64,000 nt of DNA from positions 816-64,815 of the forward strand of contig JANXAU010000037.1 in the NCBI GenBank assembly GCA_025061735.1. Reading direction: 5' to 3'. The notes below the pieces were generated by a model, which had not been told where the DNA came from, made no database searches, and saw only the letters and a list, made by a program, of their open reading frames with translations. Made by a program: the position numbers and the translations under genes. Below are positions 3,511 to 54,173 of this stretch, piece by piece (position 1 is the stretch's first letter; the number at the start of each line of letters is the position of its first letter). The stretch comes from Candidatus Bipolaricaulota bacterium (GTDB taxonomy: Bacteria; Bipolaricaulota; Bipolaricaulia; RBG-16-55-9; DRXL01).

Positions 3511-3944
3511 TCCTCGTTGACGCGAATATCTTGATCTACGCGCATGTATCAAGCTCACCATACCACAAGGCCGCACGACGCTGGCTGGAAGACCAACTCA
3601 ACAGCACATCGCAAGTGGGGTTACCGTGGCCATCACTTTTGGCGTTTGTGCGTTTGGTGACTAACCCTCGAATTTTTGAGTATCCTGTATCGCTGGATGA
3701 AGCCTGGAACCGTGTCGAGGAATGGTTGGCGCTCCCCTCGGTCTGGATTCCCCAACCCACAGAGCGCCATGCTCAGATTTTGGGGGATTTCCTCAAACGT
3801 GTAGTAGATCGCTCTTCTCTCGTTCCTGATGCACATATCGCAGCACTCGCTATTGAGCACGGTTTGACCCTGTACAGCACAGACAGAGATTTCGCTCGCT
3901 TCCCTGGGCTGAAGTGGTCAAACCCACTTCAACATAGCATATAG
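3507..3944 (+). CDS. vapC: VapC family PIN-domain toxin
   Basis: MILVDANILIYA, DAHIAALAIEHG and STDRDFARF acidic PIN motifs. Confidence 0.9.
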   Translation: MILVDANILIYAHVSSSPYHKAARRWLEDQLNSTSQVGLPWPSLLAFVRLVTNPRIFEYPVSLDEAWNRVEEWLALPSVWIPQPTERHAQILGDFLKRVVDRSSLVPDAHIAALAIEHGLTLYSTDRDFARFPGLKWSNPLQHSI

Positions 3945-3953
3945 CGCGCAGCT

Positions 3954-5102
3954 ATGAAGAAAGTGATCGTTCTTGGCGCAGGCATGGTGGGGCGAGCTAT
4001 CGCGCTCGATTTGGCCCAGCGATACGACGTGACGGCGGCCGACATAGACGAACAGAAGCTCGCGCAACTACGCGCAGACGCCCCTATACGCACCGTCACG
4101 GCCGATCTCTCGCGCGCGGAGACGATCAAAAATCTCGTAAAAGAACAAGATCTAGCGATCGGCGCCCTCCCCGGATTCTTGGGCTTTCAGACGCTCAAAA
4201 CCGTCATCGAGTGCGAGAAGAATATTATAGATATTTCGTTCTTCGCCGAAGACCCGTTTGAGCTTGACGCGCTCGCCACGCAGAAGGGCGTCACCGCCGT
4301 GGTTGACTGCGGCGTCGCCCCCGGCATGTGCAATCTTCTGCTGGGCTATCACAACGCCAGAATGACAGTCGAGCGTTATGAGTGTCTGGTGGGGGGTCTG
4401 CCGGTCAAGCGGAGCTGGCCCTATCAGTACAAAGCGCCCTTCTCGCCCATAGACGTCATCGAAGAGTATACGCGCCCGGCGCGTCTGGTCATAGACGGAA
4501 AAATGATTGAGCGCGAGGCGCTCTCCGACCCCGAGTATGTCGAATTCGACGAGATCGGCACGCTCGAAGCGTTTAATACCGACGGGTTGAGAACGCTCTT
4601 AAAAACCATGAGAATCCCCCACATGCGCGAGAAGACCCTGCGCTACCCAGGGCACATCGAGTATATCAGAGTGCTGCGCGAGACGGGCTTTTTGGGCAAA
4701 GAGCCTATCGAGATCAACGGCACCCAGATTCGTCCTCTCGACGTGACGGCGAAGCTGCTCTTCCCCCAGTGGCGGCTCGATCCCGATGAGCCAGAGTTCA
4801 CGATTATGCGCGTAACGATTGAGGGCATCGAGAACGGCCGGCGCAAAGAGTACGTCTATGAGCTTCTAGATCGCTTCGACTCTAAGACAAAGACTTCTTC
4901 GATGGCGCGGACGACAGGCTACACGTGCACGGCCGTCGCGACGCTCGTGCTTGAGGGAATCTTTACGCAGAAGGGGATCATTCCGCCGGAGTATATCGGG
5001 GCTGATGAGCGATGCTTTCAGGCTGTGATGGAGTATCAGAGAGCAAGAAATGTGCACTACAAGATCGCGGAGAGAGTCGTGGAGAGAGTCGTGAAAGAAT
5101 AG
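3954..5102 (+). CDS. Saccharopine dehydrogenase / lysine 6-dehydrogenase family protein
   Basis: Rossmann LGAGMVG, DCGVAPG, EAFNTDGLRTL, KTLRYPGH, SMARTTGY. Confidence 0.85.
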   Translation: MKKVIVLGAGMVGRAIALDLAQRYDVTAADIDEQKLAQLRADAPIRTVTADLSRAETIKNLVKEQDLAIGALPGFLGFQTLKTVIECEKNIIDISFFAEDPFELDALATQKGVTAVVDCGVAPGMCNLLLGYHNARMTVERYECLVGGLPVKRSWPYQYKAPFSPIDVIEEYTRPARLVIDGKMIEREALSDPEYVEFDEIGTLEAFNTDGLRTLLKTMRIPHMREKTLRYPGHIEYIRVLRETGFLGKEPIEINGTQIRPLDVTAKLLFPQWRLDPDEPEFTIMRVTIEGIENGRRKEYVYELLDRFDSKTKTSSMARTTGYTCTAVATLVLEGIFTQKGIIPPEYIGADERCFQAVMEYQRARNVHYKIAERVVERVVKE

Positions 5103-44996: not shown

Positions 44997-45025
44997 ATTA
45001 TAAACTACACCGCGATGGTTGACAA
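44997..45025 (-). promoter_or_regulatory. Internal sigma70 promoter for lysZ-lysJ-lysK
   Basis: Minus strand TTGTCA (45025-20), 17 nt, TATAAT (45002-44997), 8 nt, ATG 44988; no SD. Confidence 0.75.
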
Positions 45026-45069
45026 TCTCCCATCTGTGCTTGGCCTCAGCTTTCTGCTATAATTCTATG

Positions 45070-45309
45070 ATGATCATCATCACGATAGATGAAATTCAAC
45101 GAGATGTGAAAAGCTACCTGCAACGGGTCAAAGCAGGAGAGACTCTAGTGATTCTCGAAGCGAACAGACCCGTCGCAGAGATCAAGCCGATCATAGCTCA
45201 CGAAGACTCTTTACGACCATACGCCCTATGCGCGGGAGAGTTTCACGTGCCAGAAGACTTTGATGCCCCCTTGCCCGACGAAGTCATCCAGCAGTTTGAA
45301 GGACGATGA
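45070..45309 (+). CDS. Phd/YefM family antitoxin
   Basis: ITIDEIQRD...LQRVKAGETLVILEANRPVAEIKP...VPEDFDAPLPDEV; TG-C-TATAAT (45055-63) lies 6 nt upstream. Confidence 0.82.
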   Translation: MIIITIDEIQRDVKSYLQRVKAGETLVILEANRPVAEIKPIIAHEDSLRPYALCAGEFHVPEDFDAPLPDEVIQQFEGR

Positions 45310-45698
45310 GACTGCTACTTGACACGCACATCTTCCTGTGATATATCACCGGAGACGCTCGCCTATCAATCCCAGTGTTGCAGTTGATCCGTGATCCAGC
45401 TAATGACGTCTATCTCAGCGTTATCTCGGTCTGGGAAGCGATGGTGAAGTATCAGCTTGGCAGGCTGCCCTTACCTCAAGCGCCAGACCTCTATATCTCC
45501 GAACAGCGTCAGCGCCATAAGATCGCAAGCCTGGCCTTGGATGAACTCAGGGTGACTAAGCTCGCTAAGCTTCCTGCTTTGCATAAAGACCCCTTCGACC
45601 GCATGATCATCTGCCAAGCGATCCAACACGGCTTAACCCTAGCCTCTGCAGACAGTGCTGTACGAGCTTACTCCGCTCACGTACTAATCGTTCCATGA
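45306..45698 (+). pseudogene. VapC/PIN toxin with an in-frame TGA at codon 12
   Basis: Reads MRLLLDTHIFL*YITGDARL...SVISVWE...HKDPFDRMIICQA; the TGA (45339-41) falls where this family usually has Trp. Confidence 0.8.
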
Positions 45699-45721: not shown

Positions 45722-46756
45722 TCACGGATGCAACCCCCAGTGATCTAAGCCTATCTTCTCATCTAAACCGCACATCAGATTGAAACACTGCACGGCTTGG
45801 CCCGCTGCGCCCTTCATCAGATTATCTATGGCACAGATCACGACCAAGCGCCCCGTATGCTCGTCCTTCTCAAAGCCGATATCGCAGAAGTTCGTGCCTG
45901 CGACGATCTTGGGTTCGGGAAAACGATAGAGCCCCGCACGCTCTTTGACGATCCTCACAAACGGCTCATCTCTGTACGCTTGCAGATACGTCTGCCAAAT
46001 ATCTTTCTCGGTGTACTCGTCTTCAAGAAAGACGTGGAGCGTGCTGAGAATCCCGCGCACCAGCTCGACCGCGTGGGGCGAGAACGAAATTTTCAATCCC
46101 AGCTCCTGCTCGATCTCGGCGATGTGACGGTGCCCCGTGGGCTTGAAGCTGCGCACGACCCCGGCGCGCTCGGGATGGTGGCTGTCCGGCCCCGGCTCCG
46201 CTCCCCCCGCCGACGAGCCGACTTTCGAGTCAATCACGACCAACTTCACTCTAAATCGCTGCACTAACGGCCACAACGGGATGATCGCGCTCGTCGCCGT
46301 GCAGCCGGGCACCGCCACCCATCTGGCTCTTTTAATCTCTTCTCGGTGCAGCTCCGGCAGTCCATAGACAAACTTACCCAACAGCTCCGGGTGCGGATGT
46401 TCGTAGCCGTACCACGTGGGATAGTCTTGCGGGTTTTTAAGGCGAAAATCTGCGCTCAGATCAATGACTCTTTCGGCGATCTTCAGATAGCCGGGCATCT
46501 CGGCCATCGTCTGGCCGTGGGGCCGCGCGGTGAAGAGCACGTCGCTCTCTTTTAAGTCTTCAGGAGCGCTGAATTTCAGCTCCGTCCTCCCGCGCAGCTG
46601 GGGGTGCGCGCGCGTAACGGGCTTGCCCGCGAGGCTGCGCGAGACCACCGTGACGACCTCCACAAACGGGTGACTCAATAACAAGCGCAACAGCTCGCCT
46701 CCTACGTATCCCGATCCCCCAACAATCCCCACTCTGATTCTCTCTCGCTCAGGCAT
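45722..46756 (-). CDS. lysY: [LysW]-aminoadipate/glutamate-phosphate reductase (ArgC-like)
   Basis: GGSGYVGGE, IDLSADFRL, VYGLPELHR, PGCTATS, SHHPER, IDNLMKGAAGQA. Confidence 0.92.
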   Translation of the reverse strand: MPERERIRVGIVGGSGYVGGELLRLLLSHPFVEVVTVVSRSLAGKPVTRAHPQLRGRTELKFSAPEDLKESDVLFTARPHGQTMAEMPGYLKIAERVIDLSADFRLKNPQDYPTWYGYEHPHPELLGKFVYGLPELHREEIKRARWVAVPGCTATSAIIPLWPLVQRFRVKLVVIDSKVGSSAGGAEPGPDSHHPERAGVVRSFKPTGHRHIAEIEQELGLKISFSPHAVELVRGILSTLHVFLEDEYTEKDIWQTYLQAYRDEPFVRIVKERAGLYRFPEPKIVAGTNFCDIGFEKDEHTGRLVVICAIDNLMKGAAGQAVQCFNLMCGLDEKIGLDHWGLHP

Positions 46757-47591
46757 GGGCCGACACCTGCTCAACGTAATCTAAAATCTTTTCGGCAATC
46801 GCAACGCCCGTCGGTGCCAAGAGATCCCGAAACTCCCCCACGCTGTTGACCTCGTGCACCACCAAGCCCTCCGAAGACTCCATCAGATCGATCGCCAAGA
46901 CGCCGCCGCCCACGGCGCGCGCGGCTTGCAAGCAGAGCGCGCGCAACTCCGCCGTGACAGGACAGTTCTCGACCTTGGCGCCACGGTCGCTATGCGTAAT
47001 CCAGTGTCGTCCCGCCCGATACACGGCGCAGATGACTTCGTCCCCCACGACAATCGCTTGAATATCCCGCCCCGGCTTGGGAATGTACTTCTGTATATAA
47101 AAGATCGAGTGGTAGTAAGACCCCAAGCTGTCTTTGTGTTCCAAGATCGCTTCGGCCGATTCACGATCGTTGACCTTTGCTAATAGCTTGCCCCACGTGC
47201 CAACGGCGGGCTTGAGAATGACAGGATACCCCATACGCTCTATGGCCGCGAGTGCGCTTTCGGGGGTGAAGGCGACCAAGACGTCGGGCGTGGGGATATG
47301 ATGCTTGCGCAGGAGCTTGGAGATCGAGACTTTGTCGGCGCAGCGCCGGGCTACGTCGTAAGCGTTGATCGTGCGAATGCCCGCCCTTTCTAAGAGAAAG
47401 AGCGCGCAGAGATCTCTGGGGTGCAAAAAATCCCGCGCGAGCACCACATCAAACGGAAAATGGTTCTCTAAACCGAATATGAGATTTCTCAGATCGGCTT
47501 TGATCACGTTGTGCCCGCGTCGGCTGGCCTCTTGCATCAAGAGTTTCTCTTCTATCCCGACGCGCGTGCAGAGCAACCCCAGATTAAGCAT
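46749..47591 (-). CDS. LysX/ArgX family ATP-grasp ligase, copy B (divergent)
   Basis: DKVSISKLL, KPAVGTWGKL, YIQKYIPKPGRDI, VHEVN; substrate loop reads WITHSDRG. Confidence 0.82.
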   Translation of the reverse strand: MLNLGLLCTRVGIEEKLLMQEASRRGHNVIKADLRNLIFGLENHFPFDVVLARDFLHPRDLCALFLLERAGIRTINAYDVARRCADKVSISKLLRKHHIPTPDVLVAFTPESALAAIERMGYPVILKPAVGTWGKLLAKVNDRESAEAILEHKDSLGSYYHSIFYIQKYIPKPGRDIQAIVVGDEVICAVYRAGRHWITHSDRGAKVENCPVTAELRALCLQAARAVGGGVLAIDLMESSEGLVVHEVNSVGEFRDLLAPTGVAIAEKILDYVEQVSAHA

Positions 47592-48477
47592 ACGTCACGC
47601 TCTCTTTCTTCTCTTCTTTCTTTCTCTCTTTGGCAACGCGCACGCAGTAGTCGATCAGCAGATCGGGAATAGGAGCGTCGATCACGGCCATGCTCGCCTT
47701 GAACTCCATCGCACAGTTGACTTCATGAACCGTTAAGCCGTTGGGGGTTTCCATCAAATCCACAGCCAGGGCTTGGCCGCCTACGGCGCGCGCGGCCCTC
47801 ACGCAGAGATCGTTCAGTTCGGGGGTGACCTTGCAGGGCACCGTCCAGCCGCCGCGCGCCGCGTTCGTCAGCCAGTGATTCGAAACTCTGTAAGCCGCTC
47901 CAACGGTCTCGTCGCCGATCACATAAGCGCGAATATCGCGATCGGGCTTCTCGATGTACTCTTGAATGTAAAAGACCGAGTGATAGTACGAGCTGAGATG
48001 GGCTTTGTGCTCTAAGATGGCTTCAGCGGCCGTACGGTTCTCGATCTTGGCCATCAGTCGTCCCCAAGAGCCGTCCACGGGCTTGAGCACCACGGGGTAG
48101 CCCAGCTCTTCGATGGCCGCCAATGCGCTCTCTTTGGTGAAGGCGACTTTGATCGCTGGCGTGGGGACGCCCGCATCGTGGAGCACTTTAGATGTGAGCA
48201 GCTTGTCGCCACCAATCCGCGTCGCTTCAAAGCTGTTGATGGTGATCACGCCGGAGCCTTCAAAGAGCTGGAGCGCATAGAGCGCCCGCGATTGAGAGAT
48301 CTCGCGATCCAAGAGCACGTCTATCGGCGGGCGCTCATCCAAGCTTAAGATCAGCTCACGGCTGTCAATCGGGACAAGCTCGACGTCGCGACGGCGCTGC
48401 GCCGCTTGAAAGAGCAGCTTCTCCTCCAAGCGCAACCGCGAGAAGAGTATGCCTACACGGACTTTCTCCATAGCCAT
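47584..48477 (-). CDS. lysX: LysX family [LysW]-amino-acid ligase, copy A
   Basis: REISQSRAL, GDKLLTS, KPVDGSWGRL, YIQEYIEKPDRDIR, WLTNAARG, HEVNCAMEFK. Confidence 0.88.
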   Translation of the reverse strand: MAMEKVRVGILFSRLRLEEKLLFQAAQRRRDVELVPIDSRELILSLDERPPIDVLLDREISQSRALYALQLFEGSGVITINSFEATRIGGDKLLTSKVLHDAGVPTPAIKVAFTKESALAAIEELGYPVVLKPVDGSWGRLMAKIENRTAAEAILEHKAHLSSYYHSVFYIQEYIEKPDRDIRAYVIGDETVGAAYRVSNHWLTNAARGGWTVPCKVTPELNDLCVRAARAVGGQALAVDLMETPNGLTVHEVNCAMEFKASMAVIDAPIPDLLIDYCVRVAKERKKEEKKESVTYA

Positions 48478-48487
48478 TTCTTTCTCT

Positions 48488-48523
48488 CCCCTCTCCCTCT
48501 CAGGGAGAGGGGTAGGGTGAGGG
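48488..48523. repeat. REP-like hairpin element between lysW and lysX
   Basis: CCCCTCTCCC-TCTCA-GGGAGAGGGG-TA-GGGTGAGGG; nearly identical to 50079-50113. Confidence 0.75.
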
Positions 48524-48694
48524 TTACTCTCCCCAATCTTCTTCTTCTTCGGGAGCCAACGCGACTTTCAGGGGGTTCAAGCTCACGACTTCCAGCTCGA
48601 TCCCACACGTATCGCACGTCAGGATCTCGTTCTCCACGACATCCGCCGGAAGTTCTACTTCGGAGCCGCATTCGGGGCACTCGACTCTCTTCAT
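48524..48694 (-). CDS. lysW: Amino-group carrier protein LysW (56 aa; absent from the ORF track)
   Basis: My translation is [56 protein letters not shown]: two CxxC pairs plus the EDWGE tail; SD GAGAGGTGA. Confidence 0.95.
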
Positions 48695-48708
48695 ACGATT
48701 CACCTCTC

Positions 48709-50046
48709 TTACTGATGGATGAGTCTGTCTAACGTCTTAAGATATCGCTCGCGCTCGACGCGCCACTCTCTGTGCGCTCTCTCTATCTCGCTCTTCAGGA
48801 CGTCTAGCTGAAGATTTCCCGGCCCGCCCAGATGCGCTCGCTTCTTTAGAGCGTCTTTGAGATTGGGCACGCGCAGCGCGCTCAGCTCGCGCTTGAGATT
48901 CTGATAGGCTTTGCGAAACGGCACCCCGCGCTGCACCTCTTCCAAGACCCTATCTACGGCGAAGATCTCCGCCGAGCACGCCGCCCGGAGCTTCGCTTCG
49001 TTGACGCGCAGCTCTGGAATCAGCCTGCTCAAGACGGCTAAGCAGTCTCGTGTTGTAAGCAGGCTCTTCATGAACGGCTCTTTCGTCTCTTGCAGATCGC
49101 GATGGTACCCCGACGTCAGCCCGTGCACGACCAGCGCCACCGCACCGCCGGCGCTCACCACCCGCGCCACGCGCGCGCGAATCAATTCCAACAGATCGGG
49201 ATTGGTCTTGTTGGGCATCAAACTGCTGCCGGTGCAGAAGCGTTCTGGGATCTCAAAAAATCCAAACTCCTCCGACGAAAACCAAACCAGATCGTCGGCC
49301 AGACGCCCGATCGTGAGCATCACGCTGCCCAAGGCGCTCACGGTCGCGAATTCGAGCTTCCCGCGGCTGTTCATCGCGGCGAGCGCATTTCTCTGGACAG
49401 CCTTGAAGCCCAGCAGTTCGGCCGTGAGCGCGCGGTCGAGCGCCAAGGGCACGCCGTAGCCCGCAGCCGCCCCTAAGGGCGAAGCGTCGTTCAGCTCATA
49501 GACAGCTTTGACGAGCTTCACGTCATCGAGCAAGCTCTCGCTGAACGCCGCGGCCCACAGCCCCACCGACGCGGGCATGGCGCGGCGCGTGTGGGTGTAA
49601 CCGGGCATCGGGACGAACTCGTGCTTCTGTGCAAATTCTGCCAGCGCCTCGGCCAGTGCCAGCAACTCTAGAGCGATCTCTTGGAGGCGCTCTTTTGCAT
49701 AGAGTCTCAGATCTGCCAAGACCTGATCGTTGCGCGACCGGCCCGTGTGGAGCTTCTGCCCCAGTTCGCCAAGCCGAGCCACGAGCAGATTCTCGATCTT
49801 GGTGTGGATATCTTCGTCCTCGACGGAGAGCGTGAGCTTCTGATCCAACAGCTCTAGGAGCGCTCCTCGCAAACGGCAATGCTCCTCTGCCGTTAGCACT
49901 CCAATCTTCTGGAGCATCGCAGCGTGGGCCAGCGAGCCGAGAACGTCATAGCGAGCGAGCGCCTCGTCCAAGGGCAGGTCGTCTTGGGCGGTGAAGCGCT
50001 CGACGATAACGTCGGTCTTCTCTCGGCCTGTCTCCCAGAGCTTCAT
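48709..50046 (-). CDS. argH: Argininosuccinate lyase
   Basis: [49 protein letters not shown]. Confidence 0.93.
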
Positions 50047-50057
50047 CGTCAGCCCCA

Positions 50058-50113
50058 CCCTCACCCGGCCTTCGGCCTCCCTCTCCCTTCCAGGGAGAGG
50101 GTTGGGGTGAGGG
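50058..50113. repeat. Y-shaped REP-like element inside the argG 3' end
   Basis: Outer CCCTCACCC (50058-66)/GGGTGAGGG (50105-13); inner GGCC-TTC-GGCC and CCCTCTCCC-TTCCA-GGGAGAGGG. Confidence 0.75.
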
Positions 50114-51347
50114 TCTTTCTCACGCGATGGGCCACGCGCGTCGGCAGCCCCCAGATCTCGATAAAACCGGGCGCGGCCATCTGATTGAACGTGTGATGCG
50201 CATCGTACGTCGCTAAGTTCAAGTCATACAGCCCGTTGGGCGATTGCCGCCCCACGACTTGGACGTGCCCCTTATAGAGCTTCAGGCGCACCGTGCCCGT
50301 CACGCGCTCATTCACTTTATTAATATAAGCGTTGAGCGCCTCCATCAACGGATCGTACCACAGCCCTTTATACACCAGCTCGGCCCACTTGCGGTCTATC
50401 AGGGGCTTGAACTCGTTCTCGTGAATGGTGCAGCAGAAGCGTTCGAGGTCCCTGTGCGCCGTTAAGATCGTCACAGCAGCGGGGCACTCGTAGATCTCGC
50501 GCGATTTGAGTCCCACGACGCGGTCTTCGGTCATATCGATAATGCCGACGCCGTGGCGCCCGGCGATCTCGTTGAGCTTGAGGATCAGATCGACCAAGTT
50601 CAAGCGCTTCCCGTCGAGCGCGACGGGCAGGCCCTCTTCAAACGTCAGTTCGACATAAGCGGGCCTCTCCGGCGCTTGCTCAGGAGGCGTAGCGTAAGAG
50701 AAGATCTCCGGGGGAGGCTCTTGGTCGGGATGCTCTAAAACCCCGCACTCGATGCTGCGGCCCCACATGTTCTCATCTGTAGAATAGGGCGAGTCCACAT
50801 CTACGGGCACGGGGATGCCGTGCTTTTTGGCGTAGGCGATCTCGGCGTCGCGGGTCATGTTCCATTCGCGCACCGGAGCCAAGACGCGCAGCGCGGGATC
50901 GAGCGCCTGAATCGAGATATCAAAGCGCACCTGATCGTTGCCCTTGCCGGTGCAGCCGTGCGCGACCGCGTCCGCGTTGATCTTGTGGGCGTATTCGACG
51001 GCGAGCTTGGCGATCAGGGGGCGAGCGACGGCGGTGCTCAACGGGTACTGATCTTGGTAGAGGCCGTTGGCCTTGATTAACGGGGCGATATAGTTCTGGG
51101 CGAACTCCTCGCGAGCGTCCACGATAAACGCTTCTTGGACGCCGAGCTGGTGGGCCTTGGCGCGCGCGGCCTCGAGGCCGCCCTGGCCCAGATCTACCGT
51201 CAGCGTCGCGATCTCGGCCTCGTAGTGCTCTTGGAGCCACTTGATGAGACACGACGTGTCGAGTCCACCAGAATAGAGCAAGAGAATCTTGCGGATCTTC
51301 GAGGGCCCTGTGCTCTTGGGGGGGCTCATCGTGGGTGCTGTGTGCAT
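50061..51347 (-). CDS. argG: Argininosuccinate synthase
   Basis: LLYSGGLDTS, HGCTGKGNDQVRF, YSTDENMWGRSIE, KSREIYE; SD AAGGAAGGTG before ATG 51347. Confidence 0.95.
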   Translation of the reverse strand: MHTAPTMSPPKSTGPSKIRKILLLYSGGLDTSCLIKWLQEHYEAEIATLTVDLGQGGLEAARAKAHQLGVQEAFIVDAREEFAQNYIAPLIKANGLYQDQYPLSTAVARPLIAKLAVEYAHKINADAVAHGCTGKGNDQVRFDISIQALDPALRVLAPVREWNMTRDAEIAYAKKHGIPVPVDVDSPYSTDENMWGRSIECGVLEHPDQEPPPEIFSYATPPEQAPERPAYVELTFEEGLPVALDGKRLNLVDLILKLNEIAGRHGVGIIDMTEDRVVGLKSREIYECPAAVTILTAHRDLERFCCTIHENEFKPLIDRKWAELVYKGLWYDPLMEALNAYINKVNERVTGTVRLKLYKGHVQVVGRQSPNGLYDLNLATYDAHHTFNQMAAPGFIEIWGLPTRVAHRVRKTLTPTLSLEGRGRPKAG

Positions 51348-51349
51348 TT

Positions 51350-51441
51350 GGGGTCACCTTCCTTCAGGGTGAAAATAAAAGTCTTTGGCGAACCGATAGA
51401 GCGCCTGGAGGCTGAGAGAGCGAAGACCTCTCTGCCGGCGT
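51350..51441 (-). promoter_or_regulatory. Structured leader-argG spacer (candidate attenuator hairpins, U-run and SD-occluding hairpin)
   Basis: On the mRNA strand: AGAGAG-GTCTTCG-CTCTCT hairpin, GGCG...CGCC stem, TTTTATTTT (51380-72), and CACC..GGTG enclosing the argG SD. Confidence 0.5.
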
Positions 51442-51567
51442 TCAGGAGCGACGCCGACGCGGGAACGAGAGACGAAGGAGGGAACGAGCAACAACAGAGA
51501 CAGAGAGAGAAGAGAACGGCTGGCTCGTCTGAGAGCAATCTATGCTGTCTAGGCTATCTTGGGCCAT
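51442..51567 (-). CDS. Putative arginine leader peptide (41 aa)
   Basis: AAGGAGG (51579-73), 5 nt, ATG; MAQDSLDSIDCSQTSQPFSSLSVSVVARSLLRLSFPRRRRS*; tandem CGT CGG CGT CGC just before the stop. Confidence 0.72.
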   Translation of the reverse strand: MAQDSLDSIDCSQTSQPFSSLSVSVVARSLLRLSFPRRRRS

Positions 51568-51613
51568 CTCGACCTCCTTGGGATTGTGGGGCCCTCTATT
51601 AAAGCTAGCTGGG

Positions 51614-51642
51614 ATTATAGCGCTCGAGGGCACCGTTGTCAA
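51614..51642 (-). promoter_or_regulatory. Consensus sigma70 promoter of the leader-arg/lys operon
   Basis: Minus strand TTGACA (51642-37), 17 nt, TATAAT (51619-14). Confidence 0.85.
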
Positions 51643-51659
51643 GCGGCTCTCCTCTGGTC

Positions 51660-51688
51660 TTGCTCGAGGGCCATCGGCCCGGTAGAAT
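51660..51688 (+). promoter_or_regulatory. ruvB promoter (leaderless type)
   Basis: TTGCTC (51660-65), 17 nt, TAGAAT (51683-88), 7 nt, ATG 51696. Confidence 0.6.
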
Positions 51689-51695
51689 CTTCGAT

Positions 51696-52715
51696 ATGGC
51701 GCGCGAAGCAGTTTTGCGAGGGGAGCTTCAAGACGAAGATCAAGCGATAGCGTCGTTGCGCCCGCATAGACTCTCAGAATTCATCGGGCAAGAGCAGCTC
51801 AAAGAGCAGTTGCAGCTCTATATGCAAGCCGCCCGCGCCCGCGGCGACGTCTTGGATCACATCCTCTTGCATGGGCCTCCGGGCTTGGGGAAGACCACGC
51901 TGGCGCTGATCATCGCGGCCGAGATGGGCGTCAATATTAAGATCAGTTCTGGCCCGGCGATCGAGCGCCCCGGCGACTTGGCAGCGATCGTGACCAATCT
52001 CGGCCCCGGTGACGTGCTCTTCTTAGATGAGATCCACCGCCTGAGAAGAAACGTCGAAGAGCTGCTCTACCCCGCGATGGAGGATTTCAAGCTCGATCTG
52101 GTGATCGGCGAAGGCCCGCACGCGCAGTCCATCAGGCTAGATCTGCCCAAGTTTACGCTCATCGGCGCGACGACGCGCACCGGGCTGCTCACCAACCCAC
52201 TGCGAGATAGATTTGAAGTCGTCTTTCATCTGGATTTTTACGACGACTCCGAACTCACCCAGATCGTGCGGCGCGGGGCGCAGATTCTGGGGGTGAAGAT
52301 CACCGACGAGGGCGCGCACGAGATCGCGCGGCGCGCGCGGGGCACACCGAGAGTCGCCAACAGACTCTTGAAGCGCGTGCGCGACTTCGCTCAAGTGAAG
52401 AAGAAGCCCGTCATTGATCGCGAGATCGCCCGCGAAGCGCTCGCGATGCTACGGATAGACGAAGAGGGCCTCGACGAATTAGACCGCAAGATTCTCAAAA
52501 CGATCATCGAGAAGTTCAGCGGCGGCCCGGTGGGGCTGGAGACGCTCTCGGCTGCCCTAAGCGAAGAGAAGGACACGCTCTCGGAGGTCTATGAGCCATA
52601 TCTCCTCAAGAAGGGATTCATTCAGAGAACACCGCAAGGGCGTGTAGCTACTGAACGTGCGTACCGACACCTTGGAGTCGAGTACCCCAAGGCGCGCGAG
52701 GCACCCTTGCTGTGA
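51696..52715 (+). CDS. ruvB: Holliday junction branch migration helicase RuvB
   Basis: [62 protein letters not shown]. Confidence 0.96.
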
Positions 52716-52724
52716 GGTCTTTCT

Positions 52725-53045
52725 ATGATGCGCTTAACAGAGAAGCGCTGCGTTCCGTGTCGAGGCGGCGTCCCGCCGATGACCGTCGAGCAGGCCCAAG
52801 AGTATCTCAGAGAGATCGTGGGCTGGGAGCTGATCGACGGGAAGAAGATCGTCAAAGAGTTCAAATTTAAGAAGTACTTAGAGAGTTTGGAGTTTGCTCA
52901 ACGAGTCGGGGAGCTGGCCGAGCGCGAGGGGCATCACCCGTATATTCATATCTTTTACAAAAAAGTACGGATCGAAATCTGGACCCATAAGATCGACGGG
53001 CTGACCGAGAGCGATTTTATCTTGGCGGCGAAGATTGATGACCTC
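52725..53045 (+). CDS. Pterin-4-alpha-carbinolamine dehydratase domain (no stop; in frame with thrC)
   Basis: CVPCRGG, EGHHP, WTHKIDGLTESDFILAAKID; continues through a 19-codon linker into thrC. Confidence 0.85.
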
Positions 53046-53099
53046 CCCCCTCAGTCCCCTTCCCTACGCGCTATTCGCCGTGCCGCCAGAGGCGGCACG

Positions 53100-54173
53100 A
53101 TGGACAGTCCAGACGAAGTCTGGCCCGGCGTCTATGCCCGCTATCGAGAGCATCTGCCCCCTATTGCTGACGAGAATATCATCACGCTGCTGGAGGGCGG
53201 CACGCCCCTGGTGCGCGCGCAGAATCTTGAACGTCGGTTTGGCTTGCCGTGCGCGCTCTATCTCAAGTGCGAGGGTGCCAATCCCACCGGGTCGTTCAAA
53301 GATCGCGGCATGACCGTGGCGATCTCGCAGGCGAAGCAAGCGGGCGCTCAGGCCGTCCTCTGCGCTTCGACGGGGAACACGGCCGCGTCGGCGGCAGCCT
53401 ATGCGGCCCGCGCAGGAATGAGGGCTTTTGTGATCGTGCCCGAGGGCCAGATCGCCTTGGGAAAGCTCGCCGGCTCGATGATCTACGGTGCCACGGTCAT
53501 TCAGATTCAGGGCAATTTCGACAGAGCTTTAGAAATAGTGCGCCAGATCGCGCAAGAGCATCCCGTGACGCTGGTGAATTCGGTCAATCCCTATCGCATC
53601 GAAGGGCAGAAGACGGCAGCATTTGAGATCTGCGATCTCTTGGGGCGTGCGCCGGACTATCACGCGCTGCCGGTGGGCAACGCTGGGAATATCACGGCGT
53701 ATTGGAAGGGGTATTGTGAGTATTTCGCTGCGAAGAAGATCGCGCAGCGTCCGGTGATGCTGGGCTTTCAAGCCGAGGGCGCGGCGCCTCTCGTCTTGGG
53801 CCATCCCATCGAGAACCCCAAGACGGTCGCCACGGCGATCAAGATCGGCAACCCCGCGAGCTGGCAAGGAGCCATCCAAGCGCGCGACGAGTCCGGGGGA
53901 CTCATCACAACCGTGACTGACGAGCAGATTCTCGAAGCGTATAGATTGTTAGCACAGCTAGAGGGGGTCTTCTGCGAGCCGGCATCGGCGGCGTCGGTCG
54001 CGGGGGTGCTTCGGTTGGCTTGGCAAGATTACTTCAAGCCCGGAAGCATCGTCGTCTGCACGCTGACGGGGCACGGGCTGAAAGACCCTGATAATGCGCT
54101 TGCCGTAGGCTCATCCGAACGGATATCGGTAGAAGCGAAGCTAGAAGCCGTGCTGGATGTCATGGGGCTGTGA
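53100..54173 (+). CDS. thrC: Threonine synthase
   Basis: TLLEGGTPL, NPTGSFKDRG (PLP Lys), ASTGNTAAS, PVGNAGNI, EPASAASVAG, TGHGLKD. Confidence 0.93.
   Translation: MDSPDEVWPGVYARYREHLPPIADENIITLLEGGTPLVRAQNLERRFGLPCALYLKCEGANPTGSFKDRGMTVAISQAKQAGAQAVLCASTGNTAASAAAYAARAGMRAFVIVPEGQIALGKLAGSMIYGATVIQIQGNFDRALEIVRQIAQEHPVTLVNSVNPYRIEGQKTAAFEICDLLGRAPDYHALPVGNAGNITAYWKGYCEYFAAKKIAQRPVMLGFQAEGAAPLVLGHPIENPKTVATAIKIGNPASWQGAIQARDESGGLITTVTDEQILEAYRLLAQLEGVFCEPASAASVAGVLRLAWQDYFKPGSIVVCTLTGHGLKDPDNALAVGSSERISVEAKLEAVLDVMGL

Follow-up and report, generated by a model that had tools for sequence, protein, structure and literature searches.

A candidate arginine-codon leader peptide upstream of argG in a LysW-type arginine operon of Bipolaricaulota

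The argG locus and its leader

The stretch of DNA analysed (the window) comprises 64,000 nt from Candidatus Bipolaricaulota bacterium (Acetothermia; assembly GCA_025061735.1, contig JANXAU010000037.1, positions 816 to 64,815 of the forward strand). Its minus strand carries argG, encoding argininosuccinate synthase (50061..51365 including the SD, ATG at 51347; NCBIfam NF001770, E = 8e-170), with the SD sequence GAAGGAAGGTGA at 51365-51354. NCBIfam and Pfam matches identified the genes that follow on the same strand (45722..50064) as argH (50064-48709), lysW (48694-48524), two LysX/ArgX-type ATP-grasp ligase genes (48477-47584 and 47591-46749), and argC/lysY (46774-45722). The order argG-argH-lysW-lysX-lysX-lysY was also found at seven related loci (L161, L164, L166, L167, L169, L171, and L172). 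An inserted toxin-antitoxin pair lies between this group and lysZ-lysJ-lysK, as does a second promoter, and a leader upstream of argG would thus directly govern only argG to lysY. The initial annotation, which had placed a LysW-type operon under leader control, therefore stands for argG to lysY but not for lysZ-lysJ-lysK.

On the minus strand, 94 nt 5' of argG, a promoter and an AAGGAGG-5-ATG start site precede a 41-codon ORF that ends in PRRRRS-TGA. The sigma-70-type promoter (51614..51642; TTGACA at 51642-51637, 17-nt spacer, TATAAT at 51619-51614) matches the consensus at 12 of 12 positions and was the sole such site across the 60 kb scanned; shuffled sequences gave 0.3 sites per 1.5 kb in the promoter scan. 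All nine aligned relatives have TTGACA unchanged and retain a hexamer resembling the −10. Transcription would start near 51607. The leader SD AAGGAGG (51573..51579, minus strand) lies 5 nt before the leader ATG (51567), and the SD-ATG block AGGAGGTYGAGATG is invariant in nine related upstream regions. The ORF itself, MAQDSLDSIDCSQTSQPFSSLSVSVVARSLLRLSFPRRRRS, spans 51442..51567 on the minus strand with its stop codon TGA at 51444-51442. Promoter, SD-ATG, ORF, stem, U-run, and argG SD were all found on the minus strand where the initial annotation had placed them.

An ATG-initiated ORF containing RRRR arose in 55 of 20,000 dinucleotide shuffles of the 298-nt region. Among all SD-preceded ORFs of ≤60 codons in the window, runs of four identical residues occur in just two, the leader ORF and LysW. 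Gene callers annotated the same ORF as a gene in two relatives.

Conservation of the leader and its arginine codons

Related leaders were collected from several sources. Among the matches listed in a metagenome scan with an ArgG alignment, relatives showed ≤59% identity; closer loci were gathered through exact-protein look-ups, and a leader-peptide profile search gave four matches, two of them new (P0123 and P0124). Ten related leaders were obtained in this way, eight as upstream regions (L078 and L161-L167) and two as called peptides. The eight upstream regions contain orthologous ORFs with start, frame, and stop context kept and with lengths of 33, 38, 39, 40, and 41 codons, the middle part being unconserved. 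P0123 and P0124 are peptides of 37 and 38 residues with termini like those of the window's leader.

The C-terminal block of the window's leader (51448..51486, minus strand, from the codon alignment) has six Arg codons among its final 14: R28 at 51486-84, R32 at 51474-72, and R37-R40, CGT CGG CGT CGC, at 51459-51448. This block is presumed to be the sensing codon cluster. For comparison, 17 long ORFs elsewhere in the window have Arg at 7.4% of their codons. Of these Arg codons 9% are CGT, versus 4 of 6 in the leader and 33 of 58 over the nine aligned leaders. The related leaders share the C-terminal consensus R-x-[IL]-L-R-[LF]-P-R-x-[RP]-R-S-stop; each of the nine aligned leaders contains four to six Arg among its final 13 codons, with all but one having five or six, and the C-terminal parts of P0123 and P0124 have five and six, respectively. 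The expectation that orthologous leaders would end in Arg runs thus held for the Arg-rich C-terminus; conservation does not extend to the strict RRRR run, which is limited to the window's own clade, with RTRR, RGRR, RQRR, or RTPR in the other relatives. At the N-terminus, L-D-S is kept through synonymous changes (CTA/TTA/CTC/CTT and GAC/GAT), and the serine is kept even across a codon-family switch from AGC/AGT to TCG. Conservation of the peptide at both ends hints that the peptide sequence itself matters.

Leaders of unrelated sequence were found upstream of argG at greater distances. More distant Bipolaricaulota leaders end in VRRRSR, LRRERC, RLKRRA, and RFKRRA, and in L001 and L169 two Arg are kept via synonymous changes (CGA to AGA and CGG to CGC). 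In Candidatus Saccharibacteria, whose ArgG is 47-50% identical to that of the window, an unrelated, AT-rich RRRR leader ORF of 16-20 codons (peptide MTYRHNIV..RRRRSDSEG) lies ~90 nt upstream of argG. It is part of a complete 1:2/2:3/3:4 attenuator with a U-tract, in which a 9-bp terminator is followed by UUUU(U) and is compatible in 98.9% of cells in 39 sequences. One Peribacteria argG is preceded by an RR leader and a canonical terminator. Over 102 upstream-region clusters, short ORFs preceded by an SD showed clustering of Arg more often than of any other amino acid, with 21 cases on the forward and 8 on the reverse strand. Two kinds of candidates were set aside: an ORF in L004 (Nanohaloarchaea) that ends in NRARRR and is followed by a hairpin and U8 was not counted, as it occurs without SD or promoter context, and Arg-rich ORFs in GC-rich control loci were discounted because they lie inside upstream argR or other coding sequence. 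The core claim of the initial annotation, a translated Arg-codon leader ahead of a LysW-type arg operon, withstood the comparison with orthologues, which keep both the frame and the Arg-rich C-terminus, and was further strengthened by the recurrence of Arg-run leaders 5' of argG in unrelated lineages.

Arginine biosynthesis is held to be under the control of ArgR, or of T-boxes in some Firmicutes, and a comparative survey from 2005 listed T-boxes as the sole RNA-level control for arginine (PMC1262725). In agreement with the initial annotation, which had seen neither T-box nor ARG box, a T-box search of the region 50800-52200 gave no match even at E ≤ 10, and none reached the gathering score in 13 related loci. 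The ARG-box consensus with ≤3 mismatches was not found at the promoter; the two matches in the 64 kb (58212 and 60471; chance expectation, 1.38) are both far from it. An Rfam search of the leader region yielded no bacterial family and only two chance-level matches to vertebrate lncRNA models. In the 13 whole related loci, matches were limited to tRNAs and a single c-di-GMP-I riboswitch, which is unrelated and lies outside the leaders.

No ArgR homologue is encoded within the window, which is uninformative for the whole genome. In the sample examined, leader and adjacent argR showed zero co-occurrence, and in 18 further argG loci argR sits immediately upstream and the leader is missing. Together with this absence beside argR, the leaders of Bipolaricaulota, Saccharibacteria, and Peribacteria suggest Arg-sensing attenuators that replace ArgR. 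Such stand-ins are thereby suggested for poorly studied and mostly uncultured phyla.

RNA pairings, read-out and proposed mechanism

The strongest conserved helix of the leader RNA, the hairpin R1:R2 (51434..51458, minus strand; 8 bp, −14.7 kcal/mol), involves the Arg codons directly. Its 5' arm R1, GUCGGCGU (51458-51451), lies inside the Arg codons, the loop CGCUCCUGA (51450-51442) holds the leader stop codon, and the 3' arm R2, ACGCCGGC (51441-51434), lies just 3' of the stop. R1:R2 was predicted at the equivalent position in nine of nine relatives, with energies of −12.4 to −22.6 kcal/mol. It is also part of the consensus structure for the window's clade, with eight of eight pairs kept in all four sequences. 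An alternative partner of R2 is R3, CCAGGCG (51408-51402, minus strand), which itself can form a weak local hairpin of about −5 kcal/mol with R4, CGCC (51390-51387; predicted; R3 and R4 region, 51387..51408). The R2:R3 duplex was likewise predicted in nine of nine relatives, at −17 to −26 kcal/mol and with z = −0.3 to −3.9 versus shuffled downstream sequence; in L078, R2 has T in place of G, and R3 correspondingly lacks one C. The MAFFT alignment of the nine relatives is ungapped and misregisters a 4-nt insertion after the stop in L163, L164, and L167, and the two pairings were therefore judged by duplex energies instead of column-wise covariation. Covariation support for R1:R2 and R2:R3 is thin, with nine related sequences in which the pairs are mostly invariant.

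Between R2 and R3 lies the hairpin P3 (51414..51432, minus strand; GAGAGG/loop/UCUCUC), which corresponds to the AGAGAG/CTCTCT stem of the initial annotation. RNAalifold predicted it with six pairs, three of them compensatory, from the window and its three closest relatives (L078, L161, and L162). The initial annotation had also proposed that the 5' arm of this stem, GGCAGAGAG, may pair alternatively with CTCTCTGTC inside the leader ORF. Sequences of the L163/L164/L167 clade fold into a ~20-bp helix composed of R1:R4 and R2:R3, the outer pairs of which reach the argG SD flank in two of the three. Downstream in the L163-L167 group are a conserved G-poor stretch, UCCCAAA..UAAC, and the conserved hairpins P3 and P5.

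The initial annotation had completed the attenuator with a U-run (TTTTATTTT, 51372..51380, minus strand), which could serve as a pause or termination tract or as a partner of the argG SD. This terminator half found no support. A terminator scan of the interval from the leader stop to argG (51441 to 51348) found no intrinsic terminator, and the best hairpin abutting the U-run reaches −4.9 kcal/mol. The T-run is kept in L078, L161, and L162 but absent from L164-L166 and the more distant leaders; six of 13 Bipolaricaulota leaders have one and seven have none. A relaxed hairpin-plus-T-run scan gave no convincing hairpin-plus-U tract in any of these 13 leaders and recovered clear terminators in the leaders of Saccharibacteria and Peribacteria (CPR). 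Terminator-like sites were not clearly enriched in this genome, with 19, 17, and 29 observed versus 17.3, 17.4, and 17.9 expected, respectively. In the consensus structure of the window's clade, a predicted helix joins UUAUUUUC of the U-run to GAAGGUGA of the argG SD. All nine leaders contain C-rich 78-nt stretches (C/G 1.7-3.3, corresponding to the 95th to 99.9th percentile of the window), which lie inside the ORF in eight of them, and the R2-R3 spacers are likewise G-poor. No rho gene was found in the 64-kb window or the examined loci, which is uninformative for the whole genome.

We favor, with moderate confidence, a reading of the leader as a ribosome-mediated attenuator that senses charged tRNA-Arg. 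Transcription would begin at the consensus promoter, and the strong SD would drive translation of the 41-codon leader. With plentiful arginine, the ribosome would reach the stop codon and leave, R1:R2 would form with R3 remaining free, and most transcripts would be terminated or silenced before argG, in the 94-nt spacer. Under a shortage of Arg-tRNA, stalling of the ribosome on R1 would free R2 for pairing with R3, and RNA polymerase would continue into argG-argH-lysW-lysX-lysX-lysY. On comparative sequence grounds, the putative Arg-sensor half of this model, unlike its output half, is well supported, because relatives keep the Arg-rich ORF, distant analogues exist, and no other regulator was found in the window. 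The terminating step is probably transcriptional without being of the canonical intrinsic type; candidates are a weak terminator formed at the U-run and Rho, for which the leader and spacer RNA, rich in C and poor in G, might serve as substrate.

The same Arg-codon sensor might instead have a post-transcriptional read-out, which we regard as fairly unlikely. In that case the position of the ribosome on R1 would change folding further downstream, and this would alter either argG translation initiation, with the U-run or another pyrimidine tract pairing with the argG SD, or mRNA stability, for example by RNase cleavage of the long R1:R4 and R2:R3 helix as in Salmonella speF. The absence of a canonical terminator, the clade-level pairing of the U-run with the argG SD, a UCACC/GGUGA hairpin predicted in the window, and the approach of the ~20-bp helix to the argG SD flank in two of the three L163/L164/L167 sequences are consistent with such a read-out, and a precedent exists in the RNase G-sensitive structure of speF orf34 (PMC6386406). 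However, the U-run:SD helix is weak and consists mostly of A-U and G-U pairs, the unpaired probability of the argG SD/AUG showed no consistent shift among the free, stalled-at-Arg, and at-stop states in nine sequences, and the Arg-codon region matched the argG initiation region as a pairing partner no better than shuffled sequences did (z = −1.5 to +0.5). With both accessibility under three ribosome positions and duplex energies giving null results, a model of SD sequestration was rejected.

The conserved peptide termini raise the question of whether the nascent chain itself is the sensor. According to this improbable reading, the leader is a ligand-responsive arrest peptide that senses free arginine or a pathway intermediate in the ribosome tunnel and holds the ribosome at or near the stop; it would be comparable, in a bacterium, to the arginine attenuator peptide of fungi, to TnaC, and to SpeFL. 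The nascent chain would be of 33-41 residues, about the span of the exit tunnel, with an acidic N-terminus, the C-terminus R-x-[IL]-L-R-[LF]-P-R-x-R-R-S, and an Arg block within 2-5 codons of the stop. Its termini are conserved at the amino-acid level while the middle varies, and the dispensability of a strict Arg run suggests a motif rather than a codon count; SpeFL, a sensor of 34 residues, likewise has an RR motif that is essential (see also PMC6386406). The unrelated leaders elsewhere, however, share only the Arg cluster, which points to codon-level sensing as the common principle. Conservation of the C-terminal nucleotides is also explained by R1:R2 pairing, and the repression by ligand that a biosynthetic operon needs is already provided by the classical scheme. 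A combination of the two sensors for a LysW-based arginine pathway is likewise improbable: a peptide M-x-[QE]-[DE]-[SN]-L-D-S ... R-x-[IL]-L-R-[LF]-P-R-x-R-R-S-stop might act as an arginine-responsive arrest peptide and through its own Arg codons, reporting both charged tRNA and free metabolite, with the stalled or released ribosome gating access of Rho to the C-rich leader RNA in an organism without canonical intrinsic terminators.

Even less credence is given to a structured RNA acting as a binding site for a protein or metabolite, or to an ORF encoding a small basic protein that has its own function; in either case the Arg codons (CGN) would be a by-product of GC-rich stems without a part in arginine sensing. 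The Arg codons do coincide with the strongest conserved helix, and the G-poor stretch of the L163-L167 group with P3 and P5 resembles a structured leader RNA. Against this, no Rfam family matched; frame, SD-ATG, and stop are all conserved, which would be needless for an RNA-only element; Arg clusters recur in unrelated leader RNAs, always before argG; and in L001 and L169 the two Arg persist despite synonymous changes. That the ORF arose by chance in the promoter-proximal 5' UTR and has no regulatory role is very improbable and is disfavored by the comparative data. The whole-leader fold was no better than shuffles (z = +0.37), and GC-rich DNA yields spurious Arg-rich ORFs as in the control loci; against this, an RRRR ORF is rare in shuffled sequence, the leader is the only ORF of its kind in the 64 kb besides LysW, and it is conserved in ten related sequences with analogues in other phyla.

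Relation to known leaders and regulators

The attenuation model can be compared with several established systems. ArgR with its ARG boxes and Arg T-boxes perform the same task, keeping arg genes off when arginine is sufficient, and neither was detected here. Leader-peptide attenuation is textbook knowledge for Trp, His, Leu, Thr, Phe, and Ile/Val, and for Lys in Thermus. The classical trp, his, leu, thr, phe, and ilv attenuators likewise have an SD-preceded short ORF 5' of a biosynthetic operon with end-product codons clustered near its 3' end; as is predicted for the window, these codons fall in region 1 of a 1:2 hairpin, the stop codon lies between regions 1 and 2, and region 3 is the alternative partner of region 2. 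The window's leader differs in being arginine-specific, a kind for which no leader was found in Rfam or the literature searched, in its long ORF (33-41 codons) with conserved peptide termini, and in lacking a GC-rich 3:4 hairpin with an adjoining U-tract. It has no sequence homology to Rfam Trp_leader, His_leader, Leu_leader, Thr_leader, or Phe_leader. The Bipolaricaulota leader thus offers a case for studying the read-out of attenuation where hairpin-plus-U terminators are not evident.

The lysine (alpha-aminoadipate/LysW) cluster of Thermus thermophilus reportedly has a leader with Lys codons and a terminator. In both cases a deep-branching bacterium would use a leader peptide to control an operon of a LysW-carrier-protein pathway; the Thermus leader senses lysine, whereas the operon in the window is headed by argG-argH and has no evident terminator. 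The window's leader contains no Lys codons, and an adjacent pair of them occurs in none of the nine aligned group-A leaders, with a single Lys in L165. The leader is also relevant to the question of how a shared LysW pathway, possibly serving lysine as well as arginine, comes under the control of just one of the two products.

In fungi, the arginine attenuator peptide (arg-2/CPA1 uORF) confers arginine-responsive expression through a conserved peptide. Like the window's leader, it is encoded by an upstream ORF before an arginine-biosynthesis gene and is conserved in peptide sequence. Unlike it, the fungal system is eukaryotic and scanning-dependent, senses free arginine via the nascent peptide and not via codons, and shows no sequence similarity to the leader described here.

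Arg codons as sensors have been described in bacteria for other targets. In speF orf34 (SpeFL) of Salmonella and E. coli, ribosome pausing at consecutive Arg codons under low arginine refolds the downstream mRNA, translation of the ORF counteracts Rho-dependent termination, and the Arg-codon pause is tied to an RNase G-sensitive structure (PMC6386406). Shared features are a leader ORF of ~34 codons and the lack of a canonical intrinsic terminator; orf34, however, is proteobacterial, controls a catabolic/polyamine gene, also senses ornithine via the nascent chain, and has no sequence similarity to the window's leader. In Staphylococcus aureus rbfL, slow decoding of Arg codons in a short leader ORF reports arginine limitation (PMC13009471). 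Here, in contrast to the window, two rare AGA/AGG codons are used, the paused ribosome occludes an adjacent RBS so that starvation represses, and the target is a biofilm regulator, not arg genes.

An Arg-codon leader controlling arginine genes has not been described previously in the literature searched, and the findings point to a missing class, represented by the conserved Arg-codon leaders 5' of argG in Bipolaricaulota. Such leaders provide a handle to annotate arg regulons in metagenome-assembled genomes. The Saccharibacteria argG leader, likewise without a description in the literature searched, should work in standard hosts with its canonical terminator. It differs from the window's leader in its shorter ORF, unrelated peptide, and clear terminator, and both share the same predicted four-region topology with R1 within the Arg codons.

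Leader elements and the operon they precede

All of the elements listed in the initial annotation were present on the minus strand upstream of argG: a promoter TTGACA-17 nt-TATAAT (51642-51637 and 51619-51614), which matches the consensus at 12 of 12 positions, as no other site did across the 60 kb scanned; a ribosome-binding site AAGGAGG (51579-51573), 5 nt before the leader ATG (51567); a 41-codon ORF, MAQDSLDSIDCSQTSQPFSSLSVSVVARSLLRLSFPRRRRS, ending CGT CGG CGT CGC TCC TGA (stop 51444-51442); the stem GUCGGCGU/ACGCCGGC (51458-51434), whose loop contains the stop codon; an AGAGAG/CTCTCT hairpin, termed P3 (51432-51414); the U-run TTTTATTTT (51380-51372); and the argG Shine-Dalgarno sequence (SD), followed by the argG ATG (51347). 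An ATG-initiated ORF containing RRRR occurred in 55 of 20,000 dinucleotide shuffles of this 298-nt region. Of all ORFs of ≤60 codons in the window that follow an SD, only the leader ORF and LysW contain the same residue four times in succession.

The operon comprises argG (51347-50061), argH (50064-48709), lysW ending EEEDWGE (48694-48524), two LysX/ArgX-type ATP-grasp ligases (48477-47584 and 47591-46749), and argC/lysY (46774-45722), all on the minus strand. The LysW cluster is split between lysY and lysZ by an insertion on the opposite strand, a pair of Phd/YefM antitoxin and PIN-domain toxin genes (45019-45698, plus strand). Downstream of this pair, lysZ, lysJ, and lysK have their own promoter (TTGTCA-17-TATAAT, 45025-44997, minus strand). 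Thus, direct control by the leader would be limited to the first six genes. The −10 element of the second promoter ends 8 nt upstream of the lysZ ATG (44988), so that the lysZ mRNA may be leaderless. Upstream of the leader, the divergent ruvB (ATG 51696) adjoins a gene for a 482-residue protein (52725-54173, plus strand) with an unusual fusion of an N-terminal pterin-4a-carbinolamine dehydratase and a PLP-dependent (PALP) enzyme domain.

Conservation of the leader in Bipolaricaulota

The nearest relatives of the window's ArgG were from metagenome-assembled genomes of Candidatus Bipolaricaulota/Acetothermia (96%, 73%, 69%, and lower identity), followed by DPANN and other archaea (∼60%) and Candidatus Saccharibacteria (∼48%). 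DNA upstream of argG was taken from 17 loci with ArgG 60-96% identical to that of the window. The feature is real and conserved: eight of these loci (L078 and L161-L167) contained the same promoter, an invariant block AGGAGGTYGAGATG, and a same-frame ORF of 33-41 codons with its stop in the same context, and a profile search identified two further peptides of this family. Both termini of the peptide are conserved (N-terminus M-x-(Q/E)-(D/E)-(S/N)-L-D-S; C-terminus R-x-(I/L)-L-R-(L/F)-P-R-x-(R/P)-R-S-stop), and the middle is unconserved and length-variable. Length differences were whole codons throughout, and the N-terminal Leu, Asp, and Ser were retained via synonymous changes, with the serine codon family switched once; these comparisons thus provide evidence that the leader ORF is translated. 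Gene callers annotated the ORF in two relatives.

This comparison of argG upstream regions is the check that the initial annotation, which had centered on the RRRR run, suggested. In the leaders of this family, the conserved frame and the Arg-rich end stood, but strict RRRR was limited to the window's own clade (window, L078, L161, and L162), with RTRR, RGRR, RQRR, or RTPR elsewhere. Five or six Arg lie within the last 13 codons in eight of the nine aligned leaders (four in L167), and the two called peptides from the profile search have five and six; Arg makes up 7.4% of residues in the window's genes. CGT accounts for 33 of 58 Arg codons (57%) across the nine leaders and for four of six in the window leader (51448-51486, minus strand), whereas across 17 of the window's long ORFs the share of CGT is 9% and that of CGC 50%.

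At more distant Bipolaricaulota loci, a consensus promoter and a strong SD precede a first ORF that is unrelated in sequence yet Arg-rich at its end (KCVRRRSR in L002, PLRRERC in L003, TRLKRRA in L171, and KRFKRRA in L172, each before the stop). Two Acetothermia loci, whose ArgG shares 72-73% identity with that of the window, have another ORF of 15-17 codons with the motif IGR(E/N)RFI (MQANHDIGRERFIIK, L001, 3786-3833; MWSRYGIGRNRFISMWH, L169, 2829-2882), in which two Arg are kept synonymously (CGA to AGA; CGG to CGC) and after which no T-run follows. Locus L170 is without a leader, and its argG directly follows aconitase-family genes; L168 is ambiguous.

As the initial annotation had stated, neither an ARG box (looked for near the promoter) nor a T-box (T-box search) was found, and the window contains no ArgR homologue. 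Among the matches listed, an argR homologue lies directly upstream of argG at 18 metagenomic loci with ArgG 48-56% identical to the window's (L093, L102, L106, L121, L124, L125, L128, L131, L136-L141, L146, L148, L156, and L158); it is absent from this position at all leader-bearing loci. On the related metagenomic contig L164, the strand opposite the arg leader carries, upstream of the leader region, a c-di-GMP-I riboswitch aptamer (551-627, minus; RF01051, 43.2 bits versus a gathering score of 35).

Predicted RNA pairing and read-out

For each of the nine orthologues, a hairpin (−12.4 to −22.6 kcal/mol) is predicted between region R1, made up of the final Arg codons and Ser, and R2 just past the stop; the stop codon falls within the loop or beside it. 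In the window, R1:R2 lies at 51458-51434 and is the top helix of the clade consensus. A second complement of R2 lies farther downstream, R3 (consensus CAGG[C/U]G[C/U]UCG; window 51408-51402), with R2:R3 duplex energies of −17 to −26 kcal/mol; where T replaces G in the R2 of L078, one C has been lost from its R3. Directly after R3, R4 (AAGAGCGRC) can pair with R1 in L163, L164, L165, and L167, so that their naked RNA would form a long R1:R4 plus R2:R3 helix. The AGAGAG/CTCTCT stem proposed initially is retained in the window's clade, and three of its pairs show compensatory changes there. Another hairpin with compensatory changes, P5, is specific to L163, L164, and L167. A single-stranded stretch poor in G, UCCCAAA..UUAACUAAC, is conserved between P3 and R3 in L163-L167 and has stops in two or three reading frames; the window's own clade lacks it. 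The whole-leader fold was no better than that of shuffled sequences (z = +0.37).

On comparative grounds, the sensor half, a translated leader whose C-terminal Arg codons would report Arg-tRNA supply, is well supported. With generally known ribosome footprint distances, a ribosome whose A site is at any of the four Arg codons would cover R1 and leave R2 free for R3, and a ribosome at the stop codon would cover R2. This geometry is like that of the trp paradigm.

The terminator half of the proposed attenuator was not recovered: a terminator scan from the leader to argG gave none, and R3:R4 amounts to only about −5 kcal/mol in the window, 6 nt from the U-run. A T-run occurs in six of 13 Bipolaricaulota leaders and is lacking in seven, the hairpins ahead of T-runs are weak or irregular, and terminator-like sites showed no clear enrichment in the window's genome. 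The leader ORF RNA (window 51445-51567, minus strand; L078 and L161-L167) is consistently C-rich and G-poor though its sequence is unconserved, with C/G ratios of 1.7-3.3 in 78-nt windows (95th to 99.9th percentile of the window), compared with a coding-strand ratio of 0.88 in normal genes; the R2-R3 spacers are likewise G-poor. This C-richness could reflect a Rho-loading site, structure avoidance, or a constraint on peptide composition.

The most likely read-out, which we infer only, would be premature termination inside the 94-nt spacer before argG, caused either by a weak intrinsic signal located at the U-run or by Rho that loads onto the C-rich RNA; Salmonella speF orf34 is a known leader system read out through such termination (PMC6386406). 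The overall scheme, an Arg-sensing leader-peptide attenuator with premature termination, is considered somewhat probable. A post-transcriptional read-out appears unlikely. The U-run is predicted to pair with the argG SD in the clade consensus; even so, modeled SD accessibility showed no consistent change with ribosome position, and the Arg-codon region has no special complementarity to the argG start. Participation of the nascent chain itself in sensing, for which the conserved peptide termini would speak, is more doubtful still. Of the readings considered, an arginine-sensing leader-peptide attenuator acting on a LysW-type arginine operon is the most likely.

Arg leaders in other phyla and known systems

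Unexpectedly, 48 Candidatus Saccharibacteria (TM7) loci among the matches listed contained a short ORF ∼90 nt upstream of argG, MTYRHNIV(IVA)RRRRSD(S/P)EG-stop (L015-L061, L065, L070-L073, and L079; for example, L024 3790-3931). Region 1 of a 1:2 hairpin is made up of the final Arg codons of this ORF. Region 2 (GAGGGCU) has its complement in region 3 (AGCCCUC), which in turn builds a 9-bp hairpin with region 4, ahead of UUUU(U). These helices were fit by 98.9% of cells across 39 sequences, compared with 9-71% for slid partners. This leader is predicted to be a complete textbook RRRR attenuator (1:2 / 2:3 / 3:4 plus U-tract), of which no description was found in the literature searched and which is possibly the quickest way to experimental proof. 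For this attenuator, RNAalifold gave the identical nested R1:R4 plus R2:R3 arrangement, so that the four-region topology appears common to Bipolaricaulota and Saccharibacteria.

In Candidatus Peribacteria (L012, within 3758-3956), the ORF MKTSYFTSQARRTPLI has a 1:2 hairpin and precedes a canonical terminator (CUCCACUGGAUCAUCCGUGGAG plus U7), and a second Arg-containing ORF, MKRRRTPFDPLTT, stands in tandem ∼24 nt upstream of argG. A metagenome-assembled Nanohaloarchaea contig (L004, 3781-3955) has, upstream of argG, an ORF MRLLDLQSTRLVKLALNRARRR and then a long hairpin with U8. Leader-peptide attenuation would be unexpected in an archaeon; the arrangement may have arisen by chance, or the contig may be mis-binned. 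Across 102 clusters of upstream regions, Arg was found clustered in short ORFs preceded by an SD more often than any other residue, with 21 forward-strand versus eight reverse-strand clusters of ≥3 in six codons, and seven versus two at a threshold of ≥4; several of the remaining forward-strand matches fall within an upstream argR gene.

No Rfam leader family matched the window leader. Arg codons are sensed by leader ORFs in Salmonella speF (PMC6386406) and S. aureus rbfL (PMC13009471), the targets of which are not arginine biosynthesis, and a comparative survey lists T-boxes as the sole RNA-level control for arginine (PMC1262725). In agreement with the initial annotation, which knew of no precedent, no Arg-codon leader for arg genes was described in the full-text literature searched, subscription-only literature aside. 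The system would work like a classical leader-peptide attenuator, although without the intrinsic terminator that defines this class, and what is new are its amino-acid specificity, the phyla, and the non-canonical read-out.
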